This document shows, piece by piece, positions 16,588 to 64,000 of a stretch of DNA of 64,000 nt. A program made the translations under genes and the position numbers. Source of the stretch: Scenedesmus sp. PABB004 (lineage: Eukaryota); NCBI GenBank assembly GCA_014905635.1, contig JABVCE010000023.1, positions 434,001-498,000 of the forward strand, written 5' to 3'. Numbering within the stretch: the first letter of the stretch is position 1; every line of letters begins with the position of its first letter. Under the pieces are notes generated by a model. It saw only the letters and a list, made by a program, of their open reading frames with translations. It was not told the origin of the DNA and searched no databases.

Positions 16588-18582
16588 TCAACCCATCACC
16601 GCGGAGCGCCGCTTGCTGTACCACGCCTGCAGCTGTCGCCACACGTCTGGCGGCGCGCCGGCGGGCGCCTGCGGCGCGCGGGCGGCGGCGGCGGCCAGGT
16701 GGGCGGCGCTCCTGCGCGAGGGCACAAGCTTGAGGCAGTGGCGCACGGCTCCCGCCGTGCAGCACGCGCAGCCGCGCGGCCAGCGGCCCCCCGCCCCGGC
16801 GCCCGCGTCACACACCTAAACCCACCTGGCTTTCCAACCAGACGCCCCATCCATCATCGTTCAGCCACACCTGCAGAGACGACAGCCCCGTGAGCGCTGT
16901 CAGGCGACCCATCGCGCTCGCGGGGGTCAGGTCGGCGCAGTTGCGCAGCACGAGCTCGCGCAGGCCCGTCAGGCGGGCGAGCACGTGCTTCGCCTGGGCG
17001 TCGTCAATGTGCACGTAGGCATGCTGGCCGTCAAAGCTCGCATCCAGCAGCTTCAGGCGCGTCAGGCGAGTCAGCGCCAGCAGCCCGCGCAGGTGCACCG
17101 GCGGCGGCGCGTCCACCTCTCCAAAGCCGCCGTACCCCACCGCCAGCTCGCGCAGCGCCGGGCAGGCCGCCGTCAGGCCGTCCACGTCGGCCTGCGCCGC
17201 CGCCCGCACGCGGGCGCCCTCGTCCTCGTCCCCTTCGTCAAACTCTGCAGCAAAGCGAATGGCCAGCTGCTCGAGGCGCGGAAACGTGCAGCCAGCCGGG
17301 AAGAGGTGCGCGCCCGCGCCGCAGCGCACAGGGTCCCCGATCTCTAACCTCGTCAGCCGGCCGCTCAGCGCGGCCAGCGGCGCCCACGCGGCCGCAGGCA
17401 GCAGCTGCTCGTCGTCCAAGCCCGTGATGGTCAGCTGCTCAAGCTGCGTGCGCGCGCCCACCGCCGCCAGCAGCGCGCCGCCCTGGGCGCCAAGGCCACA
17501 CTCCAGGTGGCGCAGGCCCGTGCACGCCGCCAGCGTCGCCGGCGCCAGCTGCAGCGAATACGCCAGCTCCAGCCGCGTGAGGCCGGTCGGCAGCTGCGGC
17601 ACGGAGCCAGCCCCCGCCAGCCGCAGCTCCGCCAGCGCAGTGAGAGCGCTCACGGTCGCCAGCGCCACGCCTGCCGCGCTGCCTCGGCCCAGGTTCAGGC
17701 GCGCGGGCTGCGTCAGGGCACCGAGCGCCACGCCCAGGGCTGCCGTCTGCTCGCTGGCTGCGCCGTAAGTCAGCTCCAGCTCCAGCCGCCGCAGGCGCGT
17801 CAGCGCGCCCAGCGACTCCACCACCGGCAGCGGCAGCCCGCACCGCTCCAGCTCCAGGCTGGTCAGCCGGCCCGCCAGCGGCGCCAGCGTGACACCGCTC
17901 GGCGTCACCAGGCCCACGCCCTGCAGGCGCAGCGCCTCCAGCCGCACCAGCGCCTTGCAGGGCAGGGCGAGCGTGGCGCGCACCAGCGCCTCCACCTCCA
18001 GCAGCGCCACCTGCCTGCCGCGGGCGCCCAGCCACGCTGCCAGGCCGTCGGCGCGGGGCTGCGTCGCCTCCTTCACAACGATGCTGGTCGTGGCAGCCGT
18101 GGCTGCGTCGCGCCAGTCGCTGCACGCCAGCGCGGCGCGCAGGCGGCCGGCGCGCGGCAGCCGCGCCAGCACGCCCGCCAGCAGCTCGCGCGGCAGGCCG
18201 CCCTGCTCGCCGTTGCTGTCGTCCGTCTACGCGTAGGCGCAAACGGCACAGCGCGCGCGGCGGCGTGTGGGGCCGGGCGCGCTGCGGCCTCGGGCGGGGC
18301 GGGTGCAGCGAGCAGAGCAGCGCACGCGCCGCCGCCGCTGCCGGGCGCGCGCCGCTCGCCGCGCGGGCCACGGCGGGCCGCGGAAGCACCAGGGCGGGCT
18401 CCCGGGACCGCGCCGGCCGCGGATCACGCGCGCCTGGCCCGGTCCCGCCCCGCTGCGGTGCGCCAGCGCCCGCCCGCTGCTCTTGCGCGCCGAGCGCCCG
18501 CCCCCGGCTGCCCAGGCCGCCCGCTCACCAGCGGCGCGCGGGTCCGGTCGGGCGGCGCCGGGGCGGTGGTGGGGCTCGCCAT
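16588..18582 (-). CDS. F-box/leucine-rich-repeat protein, paralogue 2 (inverted relative to paralogue 1)
   Basis: Exons about 18582-18529, 18226-16826 and 16668-16588. Near-identical to 1408-3407 over the N-terminal half, with similar introns and upstream flank. Confidence 0.8.
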
Positions 18583-46628: not shown

Positions 46629-47306
46629 GTGCCGGCGCGCGCCGCGCATCGTAACTGCTGCGTGGCAACGATGGACGTTACATTTGAGGCAGGCGCCGCT
46701 CGCTCAGTGTTAGTCTCCCACGTGGCCGGTCAGCTCGCCGTGAAGAATGGGCGGGCGCCGATGCGCCCTTCACTCCACTCAGTCAAACGCGGGCAGTCTC
46801 CAAATCTGCGCCTGGCTGTTCCGAGACTCACACAGCGTGCGCCAAAACGCGCGGGGCGGGGGCCCCGGCACCACCACCACCAGCAACACCGGCCTAGCCC
46901 TCCCTCCCTCCCCGTCTAGCTCTGCGTGATGTGGTTGTGCAGGCATGCTCCCAGCCCGGCCGCCCCGCCCGACCCTAGAGCTGCAAGGGCGTCGCTCGCC
47001 GCGCCTCGGCGGCGGGCGCGCCGCCCAGCCAGCGAGCGAGCGCGGCGCGCAGGGGACAAGCGCTGGGGCCGCCTTGATTCCGAGCGCGGCCGGCGGGCGC
47101 AGACACGTTTGCCTGCAGCCCCACCGGCCGGCGACAGTGCAGGGCTCGCTCGCGCCGCACGCAGCACGCGCCCCGAGACGGCGGCACGCCGACGGGCGGC
47201 GGCCAAATCGGGCCGCCACCTGCGGTAACGGCGCGCGCCGGGGCTGCGCGCACAGCACCTGCCGCACGCGTGCAGCCAGAACTAGCTACGCAGCGCGCCG
47301 CGCCGT

Positions 47307-49925
47307 TCACCGGCGGGCATAGGCGGCGCTGCGCGCGCTCTGGCGCTGGCTGGCGGCGGCGGCCATGCGGCTGCGCATGTCCTCCACGCTGCCGCTGGTG
47401 GACTGGCCGATGTTGCCCAGAATCTCGGCCATCTGGCCGCGGCTGAAGTCGGCGAGCGTGAGCACCTTGGCCAGGCTGCTCACGAGCGAGTCCTTGGTCG
47501 CGTTGCGCATGGGGATGCCCTTCTTGCGCGCCAGCTCGGACAGGGTGTCGACCTTGAACACGGCCAGGTCAGACTCAAACACGGCGCCAGAGCCGCCCGA
47601 CGCGCCGCCGGCGCTGCTGCCGTTGCTGCGCGAGTAGCTGGCCCAGCGGTCGCCGCTCGCGGCGGCGGGGGCGGGGCTGGAGGTGCGCCAGCTGCTGGTG
47701 CTGGCCGCGGGCGCGGCAGAGTAGCCACCCTTGCCGACGGCGGAGGCCAGGTTCTTGCGCAGGCTGTCGACGTCGCGAGCGAGGGGAGAGCCCAGCTTGT
47801 TGGCCAGGTCCACGAGCATGCCTGCGGCGGGAGGGAGAAGGGCGGCGGGGCAGGCGGGCGTCAGCGCATGCCGGGCGGCCGTCGCGCAGCACGCCAGCGC
47901 GCGCAGCGGGCCAGGGCGCGCAGCGGGCCAGCGCGCGCAGCGCGCCAGAGCGGGGCCCAGCCGGCCGGGCCGACGCACCGCGGGTGAGGTCGTTCAGCGA
48001 CACGCCCTTGGCCACCAGGGCGCTGATGACGCCGTCCTTGGTGGGCTCGCGGGGCAGCTGGGCGCCGGTCTTGGACACCAGGTCGCGCAGGTCGTCGATG
48101 CGCAGCACGGTCAGGTCGGCGGCGCTCAGCTTGCTGCCGCTGGCGTTGTGGCTGCCGCTGCGGCGCCAGGAGGCAGACTTGGTCGCGCCCGCAGAGTAGG
48201 ACGACCAGCGGTCGCCGCCGGCCGGCGCGGCCACGGCCGGGGTGGAGCGCCAGCTCGAGGCCGAGGCGGACGAGCCACCGCTGCCGCCGACCACGCTGGA
48301 CAGGTTGCGGCGCAGGCCCTCGACGTCCTTGGCCAGGGGCGCGCCCAGCTTGGTGCAGAGGTCCACGAGCATGCCTGGAGGCGGGGCAGGCAGGCGGGGC
48401 AGCGCGTCAGCACGCGTGCAGGGCCCCCACACGGCAGCGCGCGGCTGGCGCGTGCGCTGGGCGGCGCAGGCGACCTGAGCAGCCCGAGGTCGCGGCGCGC
48501 GGCGCGCCCGGCAGCAGCCGGCGGGGCGGGCGCTCACCGCGGGTGAGGTCGTTGACCGACACGCCCTTGGTCAGCAGGGCGCTGATGACACTGTCGCGGG
48601 TGGGCTCGCGGGGCAGCTGGGCGCCGGTCTTGGACACCAGGTCGCGCAGGTCGTCGATGCGCAGCGCGGACAGGTCGCCGCTGCCGAGCTTGGCGCCGGG
48701 GCCGCCCGCGCCCGCCGCGGCGCGGCCGGTGCCGTTGGAGGAGGCGCCGGAGCTGTAGCTCGCGAAGCGGTCGGTGGTCGCGGGCGCGGCCGGGGTGGAG
48801 CGCCAGCTCGAGGGCGCGCTGCCGCCCGCGGCGGCGCTGGTCGCGCCGAGCTCGGCGAGCTGGCCCTTGGTGAGGTCGGACATCGACACGCCGGCCTGGA
48901 TCAGCGCGCGGGTCAGGCTGTCGCGCGTCGCGTTGCGGCCGGCCGTCACGCCGCGCTTGCCCGCAATCTCCACGAGGTCGACGATCTTGAACTTGGCGAG
49001 GTCGGACGCCGAGAGCGAGCCGCCGGCGCCGCCCGCCGCGGCGCGGGGCGCCGACGCGGAGGCGGCGCCGGTGTAGTTGGAGAAGCGGCCGCCCGAGGCG
49101 GGCGCGGAGGAGGAGCCGTAGCTGGAGCCGCCCGCGGCGCCGCCGTTGGCCTTGAGCTCGGCGAGCTGGCCCTTCGTGAGGTCGGACGCGGACACGCCGG
49201 CCTGGACGAGCGCGCGGGTCAGGCTGTCGCGCGTCGCGTTCCGGCCGGCCGACACGCCGCGCTTGCCCGCAATCTCCACGAGGTCGACGATCTTGAACGC
49301 CGCCAGGTCGGAGGCCGACAGCGTCTGCGCGGCGGGCGGCGGCGGGCGGCGGCGCGCGGGGGTGAGGCGCGCGCGCGGGCGGCGCGGGCGCGGCGCGGCG
49401 CGCGGGCAGCGCAGCCCCGCCCGCCGTCCAGGACCGCGCCGTCGGCGCGGCCCGGGGGCGCGGCGCCGTGTGGGCGGGCCGCGGGGCGCGCGCGCGGCGC
49501 AGGCGGGGCTGCCGCCCGAGGCAGCACGGCGCAGGCCGGCGGATACGCCCCGCGCGCGCGCGCCGGCGCCGCGATCGGCGCGTGGCGTGGCGCGGGAGCT
49601 CACCGCGGAGTAGCGCGCCACCACCAGGCCGCGGCTGGGGGTCGCCGCGGTGCGGGCGCTGCGGGCGGGCGGGCGACGCGGGGGCGCGTGAGGCCAAGCT
49701 CAACTACGGCAATTGCGGCGCCCGCGCGGCCCCCGCGGGCGCGCGGCGCCTGTAATTATCGGCGCCTCGCACCTGCCAGCGAGGCCCGCGCCAGCGCGCT
49801 TCTGCATCTGCGACGCGCGGGCGCGGCGCGTGAGCGGTGGATCGACGCAGCCCCCGGCGCGGGCGTGCGGCGCGCGATGGATGGCGCGCGCGGGCGCGCT
49901 GGCGGGCACTAACCAGGGCAGCCAT
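47307..49925 (-). CDS. Predicted chloroplast-targeted repeat protein (about 599 aa): five SAP/HeH-like modules with Trp-motif disordered linkers
   Basis: Exons 49925-49914, 49807-49773, 49658-49604, 49324-48538, 48374-47979 and 47821-47307 are all GT-AG and in phase (1800 nt). The N-terminus MAALMQKRAGAGLAGSARTAATPSRGLVVAR resembles a transit peptide. Confidence 0.82.
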
Positions 49926-50837
49926 TGGGGGCGGCGCGGGGCGACTGCTGCGCGCTCGGGAGGTGGGGTGGTGCGGCAGCGGCGCGGGGCGACTGCGCTG
50001 GGGGGCGGGGGGAGCGGCAGTGGCTCGGGCTGGGCGGCGCGAGCGAGTTTTGGGGGCGCCGCAAGGCGCATGGTAGCCTTTTAGGTAGGAGGGCCTTGTG
50101 CCTCAGGGTTCAACCCGATGAACTCGGCCCACGAGCCGCCCCAAATGCGCGCGACGTGTCGGGCGTTGCGTTCCGATCGCGCGCGAGCTCACAGCGCCGG
50201 CCGCGAGGGCCGGGGGCGCCGGGCGGGCGGCGGGATGGCAGCCATCGCGCGGCATCGGCGATCGCCCGGGAGCCGTGCCGGGCCGCCCTGCGCCCCGGAC
50301 CGCCGCGCTGAACTCTGGCACGGCGCCGCGCGGCGCGGCGGCCCGCGGGGAGGCCGCCTGGACGGCCGCCGCGCTCTGGACGCGCGGCCTGCCGCGTGTG
50401 CTGCGCGCGCCGCCGCCGACTCTTCGCCGGCTGGTCTGGGGCACGAGGAGCCCGTTACCCGTAATAGGAGCGCCAAAAAAGCCGCGCTCGCGGCCCGCCG
50501 CCGCATGCGCACGCGGCCGCTGCAGAGACGGTCCCCCGCTGCCCCCTGTTGCCCCGCCCGCGCCGCGCGCGCGGGTCCGGTGGTGCCTGCCGCCGCGCCC
50601 AAAAACTCCGCACCACGCCACGCAAATCGCCGCCAGCAGCCCCCGGGGCAGGGAGCGCGCGCGCCCCATCTTCATTCAGCTATGAATGAGCTCACGACCG
50701 GCGCGGACGCGCGCGGCGGCACGCGATGGGTGCCGCCGCGCCCCGGCCCGACAGTGCAGTGCAGTGCCGCCGCGCGCCAGCGGACGGGGGCTGGGGCCTG
50801 GCGGCCCGGGCGCCCCCGCCGCAGCGCCCGGGGGCGC

Positions 50838-53800
50838 TCACCAGCGCGAAGAGCTGGCGGCGCCGCGCGCGCTCTGGCGCTGGCTGGCGGCGGCGGCCAT
50901 GCGGCTGCGCATGTCCTCCACGCTGCCGCTGGTGGACTGGCCGATGTTGCCCAGAATCTCGGCCATCTGGCCGCGGCTGAAGTCGGCGAGCGTGAGCACC
51001 TTGGCCAGGCTGCTCACGAGCGAGTCCTTGGTCGCGTTGCGCATGGGGATGCCCTTCTTGCGCGCCAGCTCGGACAGGGTGTCGACCTTGAACACGGCCA
51101 GGTCAGACTCAAACACGGCGCCAGAGCCGCCCGACGCGCCGCCGGCGCTGCTGCCGCCGCTGCGCGAGTAGCTGGCCCAGCGGTCGCCGCTCGCGGCGGC
51201 GGCGGCGGGGGCGGGGCTGGAGGTGCGCCAGCTGCTGGTGCTGGCCGCGGGCGCGGCAGAGTAGCCGCCCTTGCCGACGGCGGAGGCCAGGTTCTTGCGC
51301 AGGCTGTCGACGTCGTTGGCCATCGGCGCGCCCAGCTTGTTGGCCAGCGTCACCAGCATGCCTGCGGCGGGAGGGAGAAGGGCGGCGGGGCAGGCGGGGC
51401 GTCAGCCCATGCCTGCGGCCGTCGCGCAGCGGGCCAGGGCGCGCAGCGCGCCAGAGCGGGGCCCAGCCGGCCGGGCCGACGCACCGCGGGTGAGGTCGTT
51501 CAGCGACGCGCCCTTGGCCACCAGGGCGCTGATGACGCCGTCCTTGGTGGGCTCGCGGGGCAGCGTGGCGCCGGTCTTGGACGCGAGGCTGCGCAGGTCG
51601 TCGATGGGCAGCGCAGCCAGGTCGCCCGCGCTCAGCTTGCTGCCGCTGGCGTTGTGGCTGCCGCTGCGGCGCCAGGAGGCAGACTTGGTCGCGCCCGCAG
51701 AGTAGGAGGCCCAGCGGTCGCCGCCGGCCGGCGCGGCCGCGGCCGGGGTGGAGCGCCAGCTCGCGGGCGGCAACTGGCTGGACGCCGGCGCGGGCGTCGG
51801 CGTCGCGCGCCAGGTGGCCGTGGCGGAGCCGGAGCCGCCGATGAGGGCGGCCAGCTCGGCGCGCGCGGCGTCGATGTCGCGCGAGAGCCCGGCCTTGCCA
51901 AGCTTGGTGCCCAGGTCCACGAGCTGGCCCTTGGTGAGGTCGGCCAGGCTCACGCCCGCCTTCACCAGCGCGGACGTGAGGCTGTCGCGCGTCGCGTTGC
52001 GGCCGGCCGTCACGCCGCGCTTGCCCGCAATCTCCACGAGGTCGGCGATCTTGAACGCCGCCAGGTCGCCCGCGCTGAGCAGGGCGCCGCCGGCGCCGCC
52101 CGCCGCCGCGGCGGGCGCGCTGCCGGCGCTGCTGCCGCGGCCGACGTTGGCCCAGCGGTCGCCGCCGCTGCTCGCGGCGGGCGCCGCGGGCGCGGGCGCG
52201 GGCGCCGAGTAGGACGCGCCGCCGGCCTTGAGCTCGGCGAGCTGGCCCTTGGTGAGGTCGGACGCGGACACGCCGGCCTTGAGCAGCGCGGACGTGAGGC
52301 TGTCGCGCGTCGCGTTGCGGCCGGCCGTCACGCCGCGCTTGCCCGCGATCTCCACGAGGTCAGCGATCTTGAACTTGGCGAGGTCGGACGCCGAGAGCGA
52401 GCCGCCGGCGCCGCCGGCCGCCGGGGCGGGGGCGGGCGCGGCCGCGCCGCGGCCGACGTTGGCCCAGCGGTCGCCGCCGGCCGCGGGCGCGGGCGCGGGC
52501 GCCGGCGCGGGCGCGCGCGGCGCCGGCGCGGGCGGCGCGGGCGCGGGCGTGTCGCGCCAGGTCGCGCGCGGGGGGTCGCGCTTGAGGTTGAGCCCCTTGG
52601 CGCCGGCGTAGGCCTCCGGCACGCTGCTGCCGTCGGTGCCGGCGAGCTCCGCGCCCGCGAGGTACGCGTCTGCGAGCTGCACGCGCTTGACGTTGTCCTG
52701 CTCGCCCACGAGCGCGCGGCCGTAGGTCATGAGCACGTCGGTGGTCATGCGGGGCTTCTCAAACTGCACCTTGCCCTCCTTGCTGTTGATGAGGCGCTTG
52801 TTTAGGTTCTCGTGACCGATCGACGCGACAAACTCGCGCACCTGCGCGGGCGCGGGGGCGCGTCAGCGCGCGAGCGCGTCAGCGCGGGCGCGGCGGCGCG
52901 GGCGCGGCGCGGGCGCGGCGCGGCGGCGAGTGCGGGCGCGGCGCGGTCGCGGCGCGGGCAGCGCTGGGCAGCGCTGGGCGGCGCGCGTCGGCGCGCGCCT
53001 TGTCGTCGTAGACGCGCGCGCGCAGGGCGCCGAAAAAGTCGATGCTCTGCCCCGGGAAGGCGTCGACGAGCATCTCGACGTCGCTGCGCGGCAGGCCGTC
53101 CTCCTGCGCGCGCGGCGCAGCGGCGCGGCGGCGCGGCGGCGCGGCGGCGGGGAGGCGGGGGTCGGCGGCGGCGCGACGCTGCGGCGCGACACTGCGGCGC
53201 GCGGCCGCGCGCCCCGCGCCCGCTGCGCGTGGCCCGCGCGCCGCGCCCCGCCGCGCCGCGCGCGCCTGGAAGATGCCCATGCACACGCCGATGCGGTCCT
53301 CGCGCGTGGGGTGCCAGTAGTACTTGTCCATGCGCCCGTCGCGGATGAGGGGGGCGTAGAGCGTGGAGAAGTCGTTGCCTGGGCGGTTGGGGTGAGGGGG
53401 TGAGGGGGTGAGACGGGGGAGGCAGAGAGGCAGAGGGCGGGGGTGGGCGCACGCGGGCGGCGGCGGCGCGCGCGCGGGTGGCGGCGCACGCGGGGGCCGG
53501 CGCGCGGCGCGCGCGCGGCGGCTCTCCACGCGGCGGCGGCTCCCCCCCCCCCCCTGCGCGGCGCGGCGGCCGAGGCGCACCGGTGCAGATGATGGGCACG
53601 CGGGGGATCTCCTCGTTCTTGTACACGCCCGGGAGCTGCACGTTGGTGGGGTTGTCGGCAATGTTCATCAGCGTCGCGTTGACCATCTGGTTGTTGACCT
53701 GCGGGGGTGAGGCGGAGAGGGCGCGGGCGCGCGCGGGCGCGCGGTGTCAGGTCGGGGCGCGCCGCGCGGCGCCGCCGCGCGCGGCCGGCCGCCGCGCCGC

Positions 53801-55224
53801 GCGCGGGCCGCGGCGTGCTGCCTGCCGCGCCGCACCGTGTACTGGGTTGAGAGGCCGAAGCGCCCCGCGCCGGCGTCGAGGTCGTTGATGAAGAGGGCGG
53901 TCATGCGGCCCTTCTTGATCATGTCGCTCGCCTCGCGGTAGCGCTGGCGCAGCAGCTTGGCGGGCTCGCCCGCGTTGCCCGACTCGAGCTCGCCCGCGCT
54001 CATGACGATGGGCGTGATGCCGAGCTTCTTGAACGCGAGCATGCACTGAAACGTCTTGCCCTGCGCGCGCGGGGCCAAGGCGAGAGAGGAGGGGGGGGGG
54101 GGGGGGGGGTGGAGAGGGGGCGGCCCGTCAGCCGCGGCACATACGCGGCGCCGGCGCCGGCGGCGGCGCGCCCGGCGCGCGCTGCACGCGCCCCGCGCGC
54201 GCTGCACGCGCCCCGCCCCGCGCGCCCCGCGCCGCGGCGCCGACCTGTCCCTTGCCGCCCCAGATGCCGAGGATGAGGGGGACCTTGATCTTGGGGAGGT
54301 TCATAAAGTTCTTGGCGATGTGGATGCTCAGCTTGTCCAGGAAGGCGGGGGAGATGTAGAAGCCGTCCTCAATGTTGCCCAGCGTGCGCTGCGCGGTGCT
54401 GATGTAGTCGGTCGAGCTCAGCACCGCGTTCTGCGTGCCAGCCGTCCCGCCCCAGCCCTGGAACAGCTCGTCCACCATGCCGCGCCCGCGCGCGATGTCT
54501 TGCTGCGCGCACGCGCGCCGGCGGCGGCGGCGGCGGCGGCGGCGCGTGGGCGGCGGCGGCGGCGGCGCGGGCGCGCGGGCGCGGCCGCGCGGCGCCGGCG
54601 TCGCCGCACCTGGTCGTCGGAGGTGTCGTTGCCGGCGTCCATGGCGGCCCAGCGGCCCTTGTGGGACTTGCCGCCGGCGTGCGCGACATTGCTCGAGCGC
54701 GGCGCGGCGGCCTGCGCGGCAGCAGCGGCGGGCGCGCACGCGCGTCGGCGGGCCGCCGATCGCCGCCGATCGCCTCGCGCACGTCCCCGCGCGCCCGGAC
54801 GCCAGAGCCCCGGGCGATCGGGGACTCCAGCCCGCCCTGGCGCGCCCTGAGCGGAGCGGCGCCGGATGCCCGGCCGCTGCCGATGCCCGAGGCCCGGCGA
54901 GCCCGCGACCTGGCCCACACACCCCGCACGCACCTTGGCACGCGCGCCGGGGGCCGCGCCGCTCCTGGCACTGCGGGGCAGCAGCAAGGGCGCGGCGTGA
55001 GGCCCGGCGCGGAATTGCGGCGCCTAGCGCGCCCGGGCGATGCGCGCGCGCGGCGCATTCGTGTCGCCGTCCCTCCCCCCGCACCTGGAGCCCAGGCCGG
55101 CCTGCTTCGCCACCTGCGCGCGCGGGGCGGGGCGGGCGAGTGCGTGGACGGGCGCCGTCGCGCCAATTGGGGCTCACCCCAGCCCCGCCAGCGGTCGCCG
55201 AGCACGCACCAGCTGGGAGGCCAT
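50838..55224 (-). CDS. RCA: Rubisco activase with a ~550-aa C-terminal repeat extension (about 960 aa total)
   Basis: Exons 55224-55210, 55113-55085, 54970-54934, 54711-54610, 54502-54245, 54060-53836, 53698-53581, 53378-53266, 53103-52999, 52841-51485 and 51361-50838. Motifs [75 protein letters not shown] and [19 protein letters not shown]. Confidence 0.95.
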
Positions 55225-56117
55225 CGTGTCGAGCGGCGCGACGGCGCTGCGCGCGGCGCGACGGCCGGGGCGCTGCTGGTCAGGCTCGCGGGCGCGCGGC
55301 CGGGGCTGCGCGGCGGTCCGTGGTGCGGCGGCGAGCGGGGAGGGTGGGGCCCGAGCGCGCGGCGCGGGCTTGCAGCGGGGCGCCGGGCGCCGGCGCGCCC
55401 GAACCTACCTCGGCCGGCCAGGTCTCGCCAAACCCTCATCCGCTGCCGCCGCGCCGCACTCGCGCGCGCACGCACCCAGTCGCCCGGCCTTTTGACGCGC
55501 GCCGCGAGGCCGGCGGGGCGCGCGGCAAGGAGCGGGCGCTAGGAGACGGCGCGCCGCGCCCCTAAAGGCAGCAGGGGCGCTGCCGTGGGGCCCGCCGAGC
55601 CGCGCGCGCGGGCCCCCGAGCTCGCGCTTGTGCTGGCCAGGCCGCCGGGCCGTACGTCCGGCCAGCACGGCGGCGGCGGCGGCCGGGCGCGTCAGTCGCG
55701 CCGCCAGCGCGCGCCACGCCGGCGCAGTCTCGTGGCGGCCGCCTCCACCGCGGCGCGGCGCGCTCGGGCCGCCAAACGTGATGCAACGTACGCGCAGTTT
55801 CCGCACACAGGCGCCGCGTCTTGACCGCACGACGAGGCTGACGTCGCACCGGGCGCAGCTCCGCGCCGCGCCGGCGCTCACACCGCAAACTGCCGCGGCA
55901 CGCCCCGCCGGCGCGTCGTCGTGAACAGATCCTGCGCCGCAGCCGCCGACGCCGCCTGCTGTGCAGCACCTGCAGCCCTGCATCAACTCAACTCGCGCGG
56001 CGTGCACGCGCGCGCCGGTGCCGCGTGGCGCCGCCCGCGCCGCGCAGCCAGGCCCGCCGCACGCGCCCCGCGGCGTGCCCCCTCAGCCCCCTGCCTCGTC
56101 CGCCTGGCGGGCCGCCA

Positions 56118-58055
56118 TCAGGGGGCCGCCTTGCACAGCTCCTCCAGCTGGCGCCACACGTCTGGCGGCGCGCCGGCGGGCGCCTGCGGGGCGGCGGTGG
56201 CGGCGGGCGCCCGCGCGCATGAGGGCAGCTTGGCGCGGGCGGGCCGCTCGCGCCCCGCGGCGCCGCACCTTGCTCCCCAGGTCGACCACTATGCTGGCGG
56301 CTCCCCCGATCTCGCAGATGAAGAGATATGTCAGCGCCGTCAGCGCCGTGAGGTGCAGCGCGCCCGCGGGGGTCAGGCCCTCGCAGCAGTCCTGCACCGC
56401 AAGCTGCCGCAGCTCCGTCAGGCGGGCGAACACGGTCTCCGCCTGGGCGTCGCTAATGCAGATGAGGCTGCCATGCCCGTATGCTGCGTCAGCCGGGTAG
56501 ACCACGCGAGCCAGATTCAGGCGTGTCAGGCGCGTCAGTGCCAGCAGCCCCTGCAGGCTCAGCGCCTCGCGCACGCTCACGTCGCTGCCGTACGCCAGCG
56601 TCAGCTCGCACAGCGCGGGGCACGCTGCGGCCAGGCAGTCCACGTCCGCCTGCGCCCCCGCCAGCTCGTCGTCGTCAAAAAAGCGCGACCCAAACGGAAT
56701 GTGCAGGTGCTGCAGGCGCGAAAACACACGGCCGGCAGGGAAGAGGTGCGCGCCCGTGCCGCGGAGCAGATACAAGTCATAATAGCCAGCGTACTCAAAC
56801 CCGGAGACAAAGCTGAGGCTCGTCAGCCGGCCGCTCAGCGCGGCCAGCGGCGCCCACGCGGCCGCAGGCAGCGGCTGCTCGTCGCCCAAGCGCCAGACGG
56901 TCAACTGCTCAAGCTGCGTGCGCGCGCCCACCGCCGCCAGCAGCGCGCCGCCCTGGGCGCCAAGGCCACACTCCAGGTGCCGCAGGCCCCTGCACGCCGT
57001 CAGCGTCGCCGGCGGCAGCTGCATCCCATCCAGCTCCAGCCACGTGAGGCCGGTCGGCAGCTGCGGCACCTGCACGGAGCCAGCCTGCACGCACAGCCCC
57101 AGCTCCGCCAGCGCAGTGAGAGCGCTCACGGGCGCCAGCGCCGCGCCTGCCGCGCTGCCCCCGCCCAGGGCCAGGCACGTGAGCTGCGTCAGGGCGCCGA
57201 CCGCCACGGCCAGGGCTGCCGTCTGCTCGCTGTTGGCGGCGTCACCATCCAGCTCCAGCTCCAGCCGCCGCAGGCGCGTCAGCGCGCCCAGCGACTCCAC
57301 CGCCGGCAGCGGCAGCCCGCACTCCTCCAGCTCCAGGCTGGTCAGCCGGCCCGCCAGCGGCGCCAGCGTGACACCGCCGAGCGTCACCAGGCCCACGCCC
57401 TGCAGGCGCAGCGCCTCCAGCCGCACCAGCACCTTGCAGGGCAGGGCGAGCGTGGCGCGCACCAGCGCCTCCACCTCCAGGCGCGCCACGTGCCCGCCGC
57501 GGGCACCCAGCCACGCCGCCAGGCTGTCGGCTTGGGGCTGCGTCGCCTCCTTCACAACGATGCTGGTCGTGGCAGCCGCGGCCGCGTCGCGCCAGTCGCT
57601 GCACGCCAGCGCGGCGCGAAGGCGGCCGGCGAGCGGCAGCCGCGCCAGCACGCCCGCCAGCAGCTCGCGCGGCAGGCCGCCCTGCACTTCGTTGCTGTCG
57701 TCCGCCTGCGCGTAGGCGCAAACGGCACAGGGCGCGACACGGCGTGTGAGGCCGGGCGCGCGGCGGCCGCGGCAGGGGCGGGCGCAGCGAGCAGCGCGCG
57801 CCGCCGCCGCTGCCGGGCGCGCGCCGCGCGCCGCGCGTGCCGCGGCGGGCCGCGGCAGCGCCAGGGCGGGCGAGCGGGACCGCGCCGGCCGCGAATCACG
57901 CGCGCCTGGCCCGCTCCCGCCCCGCCACAGCGCGCCAGCAGCCGCCCGCTGCTCGTGCGCGCCGAGCGCCCGCCCCCCGCTGCCCAGGCCGCCCCGCTCA
58001 CCGGCGGCGCGCGGGGCCGGTCGGGCGGCGCCTGGGCGGTGCGGGGGCTCGCCAT
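56118..58055 (-). CDS. F-box/leucine-rich-repeat protein, paralogue 3
   Basis: Exons about 58055-58002, 57705-56269 and 56183-56118. Same F-box-like and LRR sequence; last exon APAGAPPDVWRQLEELCKAAP*. Confidence 0.8.
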
Positions 58056-58523
58056 CGTGGCCGAGCGAGCGGGCGCGGCGGCGGCGGCGGCACGGCGCAG
58101 CGCGGCGCGCTGGGGTGGTCCGCTGCTCGCGGGGCGCGGCCGGCGGGGCTGGTGGTGGTGGTTGCAGAACCGGGCGGCTGGAGGATCGGCCCTGCGCCTC
58201 CGCTGTGCCGCCGCTCCCGGTGCGCCGCAGCGAGCGGCGGCGCGCGAGGGCTTTGCGGCCGGCGCGTGCGCCGCCGGGCTTGCTGGCCCGCCCCCGCGCT
58301 GCCGAGCACACACCTGAGCCAGCCCGCCGGCGCGCCACGCCACCGCACCGCTGTGCGCCCGCCCGCCTAGGCCTGCGGGATCTGCGCGCGCCAGGCCCGA
58401 CGCCCTGCGCCGCCCGCCGCCCCGCGCGCGCGCCCGGAGCGGGCACGGACTTGGCCGGAGGCGGTTCCGGCCGATGCTGGGGCGTTAGGGCCGGATCCCG
58501 GCTCGCAGAGCACACAGGCCGCG

Positions 58524-60174
58524 ATGCCCTACTGGCTCGTGTCGCTGCCCCTGCTCAAGGGCCGGCGCGACCACACGTGGGAGCTGCTGCAGGAGAAGAC
58601 GAGCTATGGCCAGCAGCTCAGCAGCAACGCCAAGCTGGAGGTGCCGGAGCTGCGCGTGGGCACGATAGACACGCTGCTGCAGCACAGCGACGACCTCGCC
58701 AAGGCGGCGGTCGGCGCGGAGGCGATCGTCGCCAAGATCCGGCGCACCGTCGCCGACATCGGCGGCGCGAGCGCGGTCGCGGGGCTCAAGGTGGAGGGCC
58801 TGCCGGTGGAGGGCTTCCTCAGCCGCTTCCGCTGGGACGAGCCCAAGTTCCCGCTGCGCCGCCCGCTCAAGGAGAGCCTGGACAAGATCACAGACATACT
58901 CGCGCGCCTCGAGGACGACCTCAAGGCGCGACACCACCACCCGCGCGCGCGCGCGCCGCACCGCGCCGCGGTCAACCGCGCACGCGGGGCGCGCGGCGCC
59001 GCGCGGCGCCCGACCCGCGCGCCCGCGCCGCGCCGCGCCGCGCCGCGGGCGGCCGCAGGTCAAGGTCGGCGAGTACAACACCGTGAAGAGCCAGATCAGC
59101 GCGGCGCTGCGCAAGGCGGGCGGCAGCCTCGCGGTGCGCGACATCGCGGGCGTCGTCTCGCCGGGCCACGTGGTCGACAGCGAGAACCTCACCACGCTCT
59201 TTGTGGTGGTCGGCAAGTTCGGGCTCAAGGAGTGGGAGGCAAGCTACGAGAGCCTCGCAGACTTTGTGGTGCGCCCCGGCAGCGGCCCCGGCAGCGGCGC
59301 CGACGCCGGCAGCGGCGCGCCGCGCGGCTCGCGGCCGCGCTCCCGCTCGCGCTGCCGCTCGCGCTGCCGCCCACGCCGCGCCGCGCCGCGCCGCGCCGCG
59401 GGGGTGTTTGCTGCTGCGCGGCGCGACAGGTCCCGCGCAGCAGCGTGGTGGTGGCGGAGGACGCCGACTACGCGCTCGTGCGCGTGGTGCTGTTCAGGCG
59501 CGTCGCCGACGACTTCAAGACCGCGGCGCGCGTGCGCGGCTTCCAGGTGCGCGCCCGCCCGGCGGCGGCGCGCGGCGCTGGGCGCTGCGCGCGCGCCGCC
59601 CCACGCTCCCGCCGCTGGTGCGGCGCGCAGGTCAAGGAGTACGTGCCGCCGCCGCCGGAGCAGCCCGACGCGCCGCCGACCGACCTGTCGCTCGCGCAGC
59701 TGCGCGCGGAGGGCGCGGCCAAGCAGGCGGCGCTGGGCAGCTGGTGCGCGGCCGCGTACGGCGAGGCGTTCAGCTGCCTCACGCACATGGCGGTCGTGCG
59801 GCTGTTTGTGGAGAGCATCCTGCGCTACGGCCTGCCGCCCGCGTTTGCCGCGGCCGTGGTGCGCCCGCTGCCAAAGATGGAGGCCCGCCTGCGCGCCGTG
59901 CTGGCCGCCGCGTTTGGCACGGGTGCGCGCGCGCGCCGCGCCGCGCGCCGCGCCCCGCGCGCCGCGCCGCGCGCCGCGCCCCGCGCGCCGCGCGCGCCGG
60001 CCAGCGCCGCGCGCCAGCAGCGGCGCCGTTGCCGCGCGCGCTCTCCCACCCCCGCGCCGCGCGCGGCCGGCGCCAGACGTGGCGTACTGGAAGGACGACG
60101 GCGCGGTGCCGGGGGGCCTGGGCAGCGAGCTGGACGCCTACCCCTACGTCAGCATCACGCTCGCGACCGACTGA
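58524..60174 (+). CDS. VHA-C: V-type H+-ATPase subunit C
   Basis: MPYWLVSLP, PELRVGTIDTLL..SDDL.K, FRWDEPKFP, GSLAVRD, DSENLTTLFVVV, VVPRSS, VRLFVESILRYGLPP and YPYVSI; four introns. Confidence 0.95.
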
Positions 60175-63766: not shown

Positions 63767-63994
63767 TCAGCACACGGGCATGACGCCGCCGTGCGGGGCG
63801 CCGCCGGCGGCGATGTAGGTCTGCAGGCTGCCCACGAGCGCGCGCAGCTCCGCCACCTGCGCCTTCAGGCCCTCGTTCTCCGCCTCCAGCGCACCCATGT
63901 ACGCGTTGCGCCGCGCGCGGCTGCGCTGCGCGCTCTCGCGGCGCTTCTGCTTCACGCGCTCCACCTTGTCGTCGGCGGGCTCAAAGTAGGTCAC
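63767..63994 (-). CDS. Final exon of a bZIP transcription factor; the gene continues beyond the window
   Basis: KVERVKQKRRESAQRSRARRNAYMGALEAENEGLKAQVAELRALV (basic region plus leucine zipper); CAG acceptor at 63995-63997. Confidence 0.88.
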   Translation of the reverse strand: MTYFEPADDKVERVKQKRRESAQRSRARRNAYMGALEAENEGLKAQVAELRALVGSLQTYIAAGGAPHGGVMPVC

Positions 63995-64000
63995 CTGCGC

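Follow-up and report, generated by a model that had tools for sequence, protein, structure and literature searches.

We analysed a 64,000-nucleotide (nt) stretch of the genome of the alga Scenedesmus sp. PABB004 (contig JABVCE010000023.1, positions 434,001 to 498,000 of the forward strand; hereafter the window, whose own numbering is used throughout). On its minus strand lies a gene encoding a Rubisco activase (Rca) whose conserved core runs, without an intervening stop codon, into a tail of ~548 amino acids (aa) with four helical modules of ~51-85 aa each. A first-pass annotation of this DNA had proposed such a fusion with a tail of ~550 aa, and our gene model has the same limits. We refer to the product as the long Rca. 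A second gene on the same strand, hereafter the neighbour, encodes a protein made of such modules with no activase domain. The features of the locus are collected in Table 1.

Table 1. Features of the long Rca locus in window coordinates (HMM, hidden Markov model; pLDDT, predicted local distance difference test; AF2, AlphaFold2).
Feature	Position	Strand	Description
Long Rubisco activase (Rca + tail), whole coding region	50838..55224	-	Hand-built in-frame model; 11 exons, 2883 nt, 960 aa
Exons of long Rca	55224-55210, 55113-55085, 54970-54934, 54711-54610, 54502-54245, 54060-53836, 53698-53581, 53378-53266, 53103-52999, 52841-51485, 51361-50838	-	Exons A-K
Rca core	52608..54711	-	Exons D to first 77 codons of J, aa ~28-412; includes C-terminal helical subdomain
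Intron E/F		-	184 nt skipped net in intron-less contigs of relatives
Intron F/G		-	137 nt skipped net in intron-less contigs of relatives
Intron G/H		-	202 nt skipped net in intron-less contigs of relatives
Intron H/I		-	162 nt skipped net in intron-less contigs of relatives
Intron I/J		-	157 nt skipped net in intron-less contigs of relatives
Junction and spacer 1	52401..52607	-	aa 413-481; Ala/Pro-rich; TWRD and GDRWAN motifs; no stop, no Met; pLDDT 31-47
Module 1 core	52248..52400	-	aa 482-532; HMM 91.9 bits; pLDDT 74-84
Module 2, full length	51822..52088	-	aa 586-674; AF2 mean pLDDT 83.8; five helices forming two helix-extended-helix units
Module 3 core	51486..51638	-	aa 736-786; found by HMM; continues over the intron into exon K, paralleling the second half of module 2
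Intron J/K	51362..51484	-	123 nt, GT-AG, within module 3
Module 4 core and C-terminal helix	50841..51119	-	aa 868-916, core at 50973-51119; conserved helix, end ...SSSRW
Tail-only paralogue (neighbour)	47307..49925	-	Exons 49925-49914, 49807-49773, 49658-49604, 49324-48538, 48374-47979, 47821-47307; ~599 aa

The activase part was recognized by several comparisons. Pfam AAA (PF00004) matched exon F with 24.1 bits (cutoff 21.2), the family RuBisCO_activase_AAA_helical (PF21228) matched residues 2-48 of exon J with 38 bits (cutoff 27), and Arabidopsis Rca (4w5w) gave an alignment to residues 2-74 of the same exon (E 2.8e-16). Over 355 columns, the core shares 90% identity with that of the long form of Tetradesmus obliquus (P0001), in which both the AAA and the Rca helical domains are present. 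The core also contains the nucleotide-binding motifs, among them LFINDLDAG, that we take to be Walker A and Walker B, and the model includes the sequence GRWAAMD, which presumably carries the N-domain Trp. Judged from its sequence, the core is apparently an intact green-type AAA+ Rca and a candidate for the ATP-dependent reactivation of inhibited Rubisco.

The model starts with an ATG at 55224 and ends with a TGA at 50840-50838; exons A-C, presumed to encode the transit peptide, are provisional. Nine of the splice donors are GT and two are GC, the latter after exons H and I (window 53265 and 52998). Intron-less contigs of related organisms were compared with the window, the net skipped length being the stretch of the window that a contig skips less the letters inserted in the contig. 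The five modelled introns from E/F to I/J have exactly the lengths skipped by these contigs, the two GC-AG introns included, and the exon boundaries are thus supported by homology. A metatranscriptome contig of a relative likewise skips 123 nt net at intron J/K and reads through the exon junction. In our own translation, its peptide is the same as that of the neighbour's junction and the differences fall at synonymous sites; the contig therefore comes from a relative and is not assignable to the long Rca, its source being either a tail-only or a long-Rca gene. The sequencing data consisted of four freshwater metagenome or metatranscriptome runs containing 5-6% of the words sampled from the window. 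In all four runs, a poly-C/G run at 54086-54120 in intron E/F attracted a huge contig depth (bin 53981-54141), a low-complexity artefact. Freshwater metagenome DNA contigs from two studies (X2 and X3; X4) matched positions 50865-51114, 50942-51116 and 55120-55380 without differences; either those waters contained the organism itself or a strain very close to it, or one of them was the source sample.

The passage from activase to tail takes place inside a single exon. Exon J encodes the Rca C-terminus together with modules 1-3, and exon K the remainder of module 3, module 4 and the stop codon. The core ends with ...GSSVPEAY, Tyr412 lying at 52610-52608, in agreement with the first-pass annotation, which had set this end at about 52607. 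Past Tyr412, exon J continues in frame for another 374 codons, among which there is neither a stop nor a Met. When exon J was searched among longer proteins, three of four matches joined an Rca to the tail: T. obliquus OEZ85_014455 (1107 aa), a Hariotina reticulata protein from EukProt (826 aa, N-terminally truncated) and a JGI protein of 1023 aa; the fourth, a Closterium protein, matched in the Rca part alone. The JGI protein runs from Met to ...GSRW, and its longest contig, 3386 nt, is too short for introns, for which reason we take it to be the spliced transcript of a fused gene. The same search among proteins of similar length gave 42 matches. Thirteen of these contain the Rca helical domain, nine of them reaching well into the tail, and the remaining 29, devoid of any Rca domain, are tail-only proteins or fragments. 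Five of the nine, the genomic gene calls P0005-P0009, begin with a few residues of intron read-through immediately before VREFV and end immediately after ...TRG, and thus represent the same exon as exon J of the window.

We aligned 13 sequences, the long Rca and 12 homologues picked because they span the junction. The Rca C-terminus was in frame with the tail in all 13, and the identity of the translations was 55-76% in all 12 homologues. At the junction, Y78 and G80 (exon J numbering) and a Trp are invariant or nearly so. The fusion architecture is present in both T. obliquus assemblies, and the named carriers of the tail are T. obliquus, Scenedesmus sp. NREL 46B-D3 and Hariotina, all presumably members of the Scenedesmaceae. 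Two scans of metagenomes were made: the first found no relative, and the second gave 29 Rca loci, none of them with a long tail. In P0204, a genomic fragment of another genome, the exon seems to start exactly at GAKGLN..., the first residues past the point where activases normally stop. In that genome the fusion point may thus be marked by an intron, which the window lacks at this place.

The GC content around the gene is ~72-84%, and a frame of 906 aa is open on the strand opposite the long Rca. Since long frames are open on both strands at a GC content of ~78%, an open frame alone proves no coding. Codon-position bias is more informative: in the tail part of exon J, the first, second and third codon positions have a GC content of 0.72, 0.69 and 0.98, and in exon K of 0.61, 0.62 and 0.97. 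The third-position value (GC3) is of the same order in the Rca exons E and F (0.94 and 0.97), and the bias is absent from the introns and from the 0.9-kb intergenic stretch, where the profile is flat. Together with the conserved translation and the folded modules, the GC3 signature shows that the tail is real coding sequence.

These data bear directly on a trivial explanation of the locus, namely that the tail is a mis-assembled or read-through copy of the neighbour and that the mature activase lacks it. Such an artefact would be favoured by the high GC, which leaves many frames open, and by the 3' end of the gene itself: the neighbour's last 944 nt are 90.8% identical to positions 50856-51763 of the long Rca, intron included. 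Moreover, no TGTAA, the poly(A) signal that we looked for, was found between the long Rca stop and the neighbour's start (49926-50837, minus strand), and none of the contigs listed from the four freshwater runs bridges the junction near 52600, a neutral finding; positions 52399-52552 were flagged as a skipped repeat when contigs were placed on the window. However, the in-frame junction recurs in T. obliquus (two assemblies), in Hariotina and in at least nine further sequences, one fusion sequence lies on a contig too short for introns, the junction residues are conserved, and the GC3 signature is unbroken over the junction. We therefore regard an artefact as largely refuted and very improbable, and have high confidence that the gene and the fusion are real. 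The first-pass annotation had reasoned that the neighbour's modules differ from those of the tail and that this argued against a mis-join. Given the near-identity of the two 3' ends, that argument is weak; it is the conservation of the same fusion in several species, and not module differences, that speaks against a mis-join.

The tail has the predicted anatomy of beads on a string. A hidden Markov model built from the nine module cores of the window found four modules in the long Rca, the number given in the first-pass annotation, spaced 106-148 aa apart; its match to module 2 covers aa 588-638, and those to the other modules are the cores listed in Table 1. In a structure model of exon J (452 aa), the three modules had pLDDT values of 74-86 and the spacers 30-45, the low-scoring spacers being residues 66-146, 209-251 and 337-399; module 2 was also modelled separately with AlphaFold2 (89 aa, 27-row alignment). 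The tail thus is, in these models, a multivalent array of folded modules separated by basic, predicted-disordered spacers. A nearly invariant stretch at tail aa 720-735 (~51640-51690), before the second module type, is found also in the neighbour and the orthologues and contains RRxS. This resembles a basophilic kinase site and would suit a phospho-control of the condensate discussed below.

The isoelectric point (pI) of the tail is ~10.4, the tail has no Cys, and each of its ten Trp residues stands beside an Arg, in [S/T]WR or [D/S]RW contexts located at the C-terminus or within spacers. The probability of such an arrangement is ~1e-9 if residues are simply assumed to be independent, and the Trp positions are invariant in the homologue alignments. 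The ...SRW terminus is common to the long Rca, P0001, P0003 and P0017-19. A set of green-lineage activases (L007-L011, L009, L013-L014, L023-L025 and P0043) have short C-terminal extensions of 20-50 aa whose last residues are an aromatic one and a terminal Trp (...AYSW, ...KSFW/...ESFW, ...SAFW, ...PRSW); these recall the ...SRW of the long tail and may represent a shared C-terminal motif. We also compared the tail proteins with the operational definition of a pyrenoid linker used by FLIPPer, in PMC11570498 and in the Ulva preprint (pI >8, at least three repeats, spacers of ~20-120 residues), applying its criteria directly: the values found were a pI of 10.3-10.4, 4-5 modules and disordered spacers. 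The folded fraction of the tail is higher than in EPYC1-type linkers.

The predicted fold of the modules is probably a tandem helix-extended-helix; membership in the SAP or Rho_N families is not established. The modules weakly resemble the SAP/HeH/LEM/Rho_N domains (PF02037, PF07498) in having two helix-loop-helix units each and the pattern L..L.h.DL..hA.K.Gh. In structural comparisons with VIA-align, module 2 gave Z 4.4 to 1v66 (root-mean-square deviation 3.1, 60 aligned), 4.4 to 1zrj, 4.3 to 2do1, 4.1 to 1h1j and 3.9 to Rho 1a62. The matches to SAP, LEM and Rho-N domains, which fell in one or the other of its halves, had Z 3.5-4.4, a weak range that is common for helical models. Foldseek found no match of the module in the PDB at E<=0.001, and the best score in the ESM Atlas was 0.83, below the level of 0.9 needed for more than a lead.

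Nucleic acids are the classical ligands of SAP, LEM and Rho_N domains. The modules might accordingly be true SAP/Rho_N nucleic-acid binders, and the tail and its paralogues might tether the activase and other proteins not to Rubisco but to mRNA or the nucleoids of the chloroplast, perhaps where rbcL is expressed. Besides the structural resemblances, which include the RNA-binding domain of Rho, the Rho_N score of exon J (24.7 bits) falls just under the cutoff of 24.9, weak SAP matches occur (12 bits on the neighbour, cutoff 23.9), a pI of ~10.4 would fit, and UniRef calls the paralogue of T. obliquus a 'SAP domain-containing protein'. On the other hand, every similarity score is under its family threshold, and some of the matched folds belong, by their entry titles, to protein complexes (the PIAS1 p53-binding domain, MANF SAP-BiP, emerin LEM-BAF). 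The context also differs, being chloroplast carbon fixation instead of chromatin or transcription termination: the fusions to Rca and to a starch-binding CBM20 domain (see below) point to the pyrenoid and away from the nucleoid. We consider nucleic-acid tethering unlikely.

The neighbour starts 912 nt downstream of the long Rca stop. A transit-peptide-like N-terminus leads directly into five modules recognized by the module model, and its end reads ...ARR, as against ...SRW in the long Rca. Only 14 of 170 codons differ between exon K and its counterpart in the neighbour; the sequence identity of the two 3' ends suggests a recent gene conversion between them. The same arrangement is found in T. 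obliquus, where the order of locus tags places the long Rca (014455) between two tail-only genes (014454 and 014457), a second assembly being alike. The orthologue of the neighbour in this species is P0014 (617 aa), the protein that bears the UniRef name given above; it had no family match at E<=0.01. The TGTAA nearest to the neighbour's end lies at 46678-46682 (minus strand), ~625 nt past its stop, and might be a transcript end shared by both genes.

The module family is tiny: a profile of the module, run against 1.84 billion representatives, retrieved only 69 proteins at E<=1e-3. Those inspected were tail-family fragments or unrelated weak matches, with one exception, P0180, the top member of the family. 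This protein of 2531 aa has a CBM_20 domain at its N-terminal end (56.5 bits, cutoff 23.3); an acidic stretch comes next, and then 16 modules at intervals of ~91-136 aa. It is encoded on an 8020-nt Logan contig that looks like a transcript. By its domain order, the predicted layout of P0180 matches that of SAGA1/2 and PMST, with a starch-binding domain and repeated modules.

The long Rca is not the only kind of activase in these algae. Using the long-form core of T. obliquus as query among shorter proteins, we found in this species the short RCA gene that the first-pass annotation had advised to look for, a conventional Rca of 406-417 aa (OEZ85_000162, OEZ86_010292); conventional short forms are also present in Scenedesmus sp., Raphidocelis, Monoraphidium and Chromochloris. 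As that annotation had supposed for chlorophyte activases in general, short forms stop where the tail begins here: among the 120 that are nearest to the T. obliquus core, the distance from the first residue of EQDNV to the end is 30-49 residues in 110 (median 35), and it is 33-41 residues in most of the 29 Rca loci from metagenomes. In a quick maximum-likelihood tree of 32 chosen cores (four long forms, named species and the top other matches), the four long-form cores grouped in one clade (Shimodaira-Hasegawa-like approximate likelihood ratio test, SH-aLRT, 97) among Scenedesmaceae-like short forms. The long activase is thus a paralogue of single origin; with a short Rca also present in T. 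obliquus, it is probably not the only activase.

The modules occur in three architectures: a stand-alone basic protein, a fusion to CBM20 and a fusion to Rca. This is how stickers are used in other lineages, and for this reason we read the tail as a multivalent tether to the pyrenoid or Rubisco condensate, a role that we consider rather probable by analogy with these systems. The module, perhaps aided by the Trp-Arg motifs, would be what this lineage uses as a sticker for the Rubisco condensate, with the tail-only protein as a linker-like scaffold and the CBM20 protein joining the matrix to starch. The long Rca hexamer, displaying 24 modules, would be held in the pyrenoid matrix, might help to cross-link it, and would repair Rubisco in place. 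Such a scheme would parallel, in a eukaryote, the pairing of CcmM with Rca-SSUL in cyanobacteria.

In cyanobacteria, C-terminal SSUL domains help to package Rca together with Rubisco into carboxysomes (Flecken et al., 10.1101/2020.05.16.099382). Like this Rca together with CcmM, the long Rca has an AAA+ core from which a flexible linker leads to a folded domain at the C-terminus, and this domain is also repeated in a separate scaffold; both have folded beads on flexible strings, and a dual role in repair and packaging is proposed. In contrast to SSUL, the module is helical and SAP-like instead of a copy of the Rubisco small subunit, and is without sequence similarity to solved chains; moreover, each chain carries 4-5 modules, the gene is a eukaryotic nuclear one, and in T. 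obliquus a short Rca coexists with the long form. The first-pass annotation had drawn this parallel, which we find apt; the tail-only paralogue and the CBM20 protein with its 16 modules strengthen it circumstantially.

Among algae, a likeness is seen in the Chlamydomonas network, in which the linker EPYC1, the SAGA proteins, which bind starch, and membrane proteins have one Rubisco-binding motif in common (PMC7673724). As with EPYC1, SAGA1/2 and RBMP1/2, a single putative sticker is found here in a linker-like protein, a starch-binding protein and another client. The Trp-Arg motifs are also similar to the Chlamydomonas motif, with a central Trp-Arg in disordered, basic, Ser/Ala/Pro-rich sequence and a motif at the exact C-terminus (...SRW here), whereas the repeats here are folded domains of 51-85 aa. 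Homologues of EPYC1 have been reported from the Chlamydomonadales alone (PMC13481261). In Chlorella, the motif of CsLinker recurs in PMST, which has an N-terminal CBM20 and six motifs, and in PMTT and RHOP (10.64898/2026.07.17.739135); P0180 is like PMST in its N-terminal CBM20 followed by repeats. CsLinker (PMC11570498) and Ulva SUPA1 (10.64898/2026.07.16.738900) are lineage-specific, multivalent linkers of high pI, with 5-6 repeats, and in these features recall the tail proteins, but their stickers are single short helices or peptides that fold upon binding. The word 'activase' does not occur in the available text of the Chlorella pyrenoid preprint (10.64898/2026.07.17.739135).

Several observations weigh against a tether of this kind. 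Searches of exon J (phmmer) and of the module profile against PDB sequences retrieved no linker or SSUL chain (E up to 1 and 10), and the 960-aa model contains no match to the motif of Chlamydomonas in its strict form, [D/N]W[R/K]xx[L/I/V/A]. P0180 lacks the Trp-Arg spacer motifs. The weak similarity to nucleic-acid-binding families described above and the conventional activase of T. obliquus also count against it. Chlamydomonas Rca, which has no such tail, is reported to enter the condensate via its N-domain and to need no tail (PMC13172511). Finally, a shorter isoform of the long Rca may exist; the lack of a TGTAA inside the gene is uninformative, with just seven such sites in the 64 kb.

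The modules might instead bind each other or another pyrenoid component, and not Rubisco directly, which would make the long Rca a client of the tail-only scaffold. The recurrence of the same modules in three architectures is compatible with this, the model contains no recognised Rubisco-binding motif, and the gene-conversion-like identity of the long Rca and neighbour 3' ends suits homotypic contacts. Yet in the three green-algal linker systems compared here the shared sticker binds Rubisco itself, and we judge that purely homotypic or third-party binding is improbable. The C-terminal position of the tail also recalls the plant alpha isoform of Rca, in which alternative splicing adds a short C-terminal extension with redox-active cysteines, and one might suppose that the tail is likewise a regulatory extension that tunes the ATPase instead of the location. 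Both are C-terminal additions to a green-type Rca, at the same position; however, the tail is ~548 aa long, repetitive, without a single Cys and common to proteins that have no activase domain, and a regulatory extension of this sort is scarcely credible.

The preferred reading, a tether to the Rubisco condensate, can be carried further to a more specific proposal, which we put forward tentatively, as a possibility. The SAP-like module would be the Rubisco-binding domain of Scenedesmaceae-type pyrenoids, used by three proteins: the neighbour would be the missing linker, the CBM20 protein a matrix-starch tether, and the long Rca hexamer, with 24 modules and 60 Trp-Arg motifs, a co-scaffold that helps to nucleate the condensate and repairs Rubisco inside it. 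If this were true, the neighbour would be the first eukaryotic linker made from folded domains, as CcmM is in carboxysomes, and the logic of CcmM and Rca-SSUL would have been re-invented independently by a eukaryote.

Elsewhere in the window, the open frames at 16811-18226 and 56083-58554 (both minus strand) are paralogous, with an N-terminal '...LPRELLAGVLARLP...' stretch followed by leucine-rich repeats, and appear F-box/LRR-like by eye. At the window end, 63770-64000 (minus strand) encodes a basic-leucine stretch that looks bZIP-like, also by eye.

The first-pass annotation had stated that it knew of no described activase so built. This stands as regards the literature: in papers and preprints, preprint supplements being outside the scope of our search, we found no description of an activase with such a tail and no pyrenoid linker from the Sphaeropleales, and no paper found mentions the T. 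obliquus accessions. It does not stand as regards databases, in which the architecture is already public, as an NCBI hypothetical protein and under the automatic UniRef name of Rca, though not interpreted, as far as our searches show.

The systems in which pyrenoid linkers are understood include Chlamydomonas, Chlorella and Ulva, and their linkers are unrelated to each other. Scenedesmus and Tetradesmus, algae that are widely cultivated, belong to the Sphaeropleales, and for this order the locus now gives a candidate set: a module that may act as the sticker, a protein resembling a linker, a possible tether to starch and an activase with the same modules. If the proposed function is true, eukaryotes, like cyanobacteria, would recruit their Rubisco repair machine by fusing to it the scaffold's own binding domain, and the module would offer a compact folded tag by which activase, or a different cargo, could be directed to Rubisco condensates engineered into crops.

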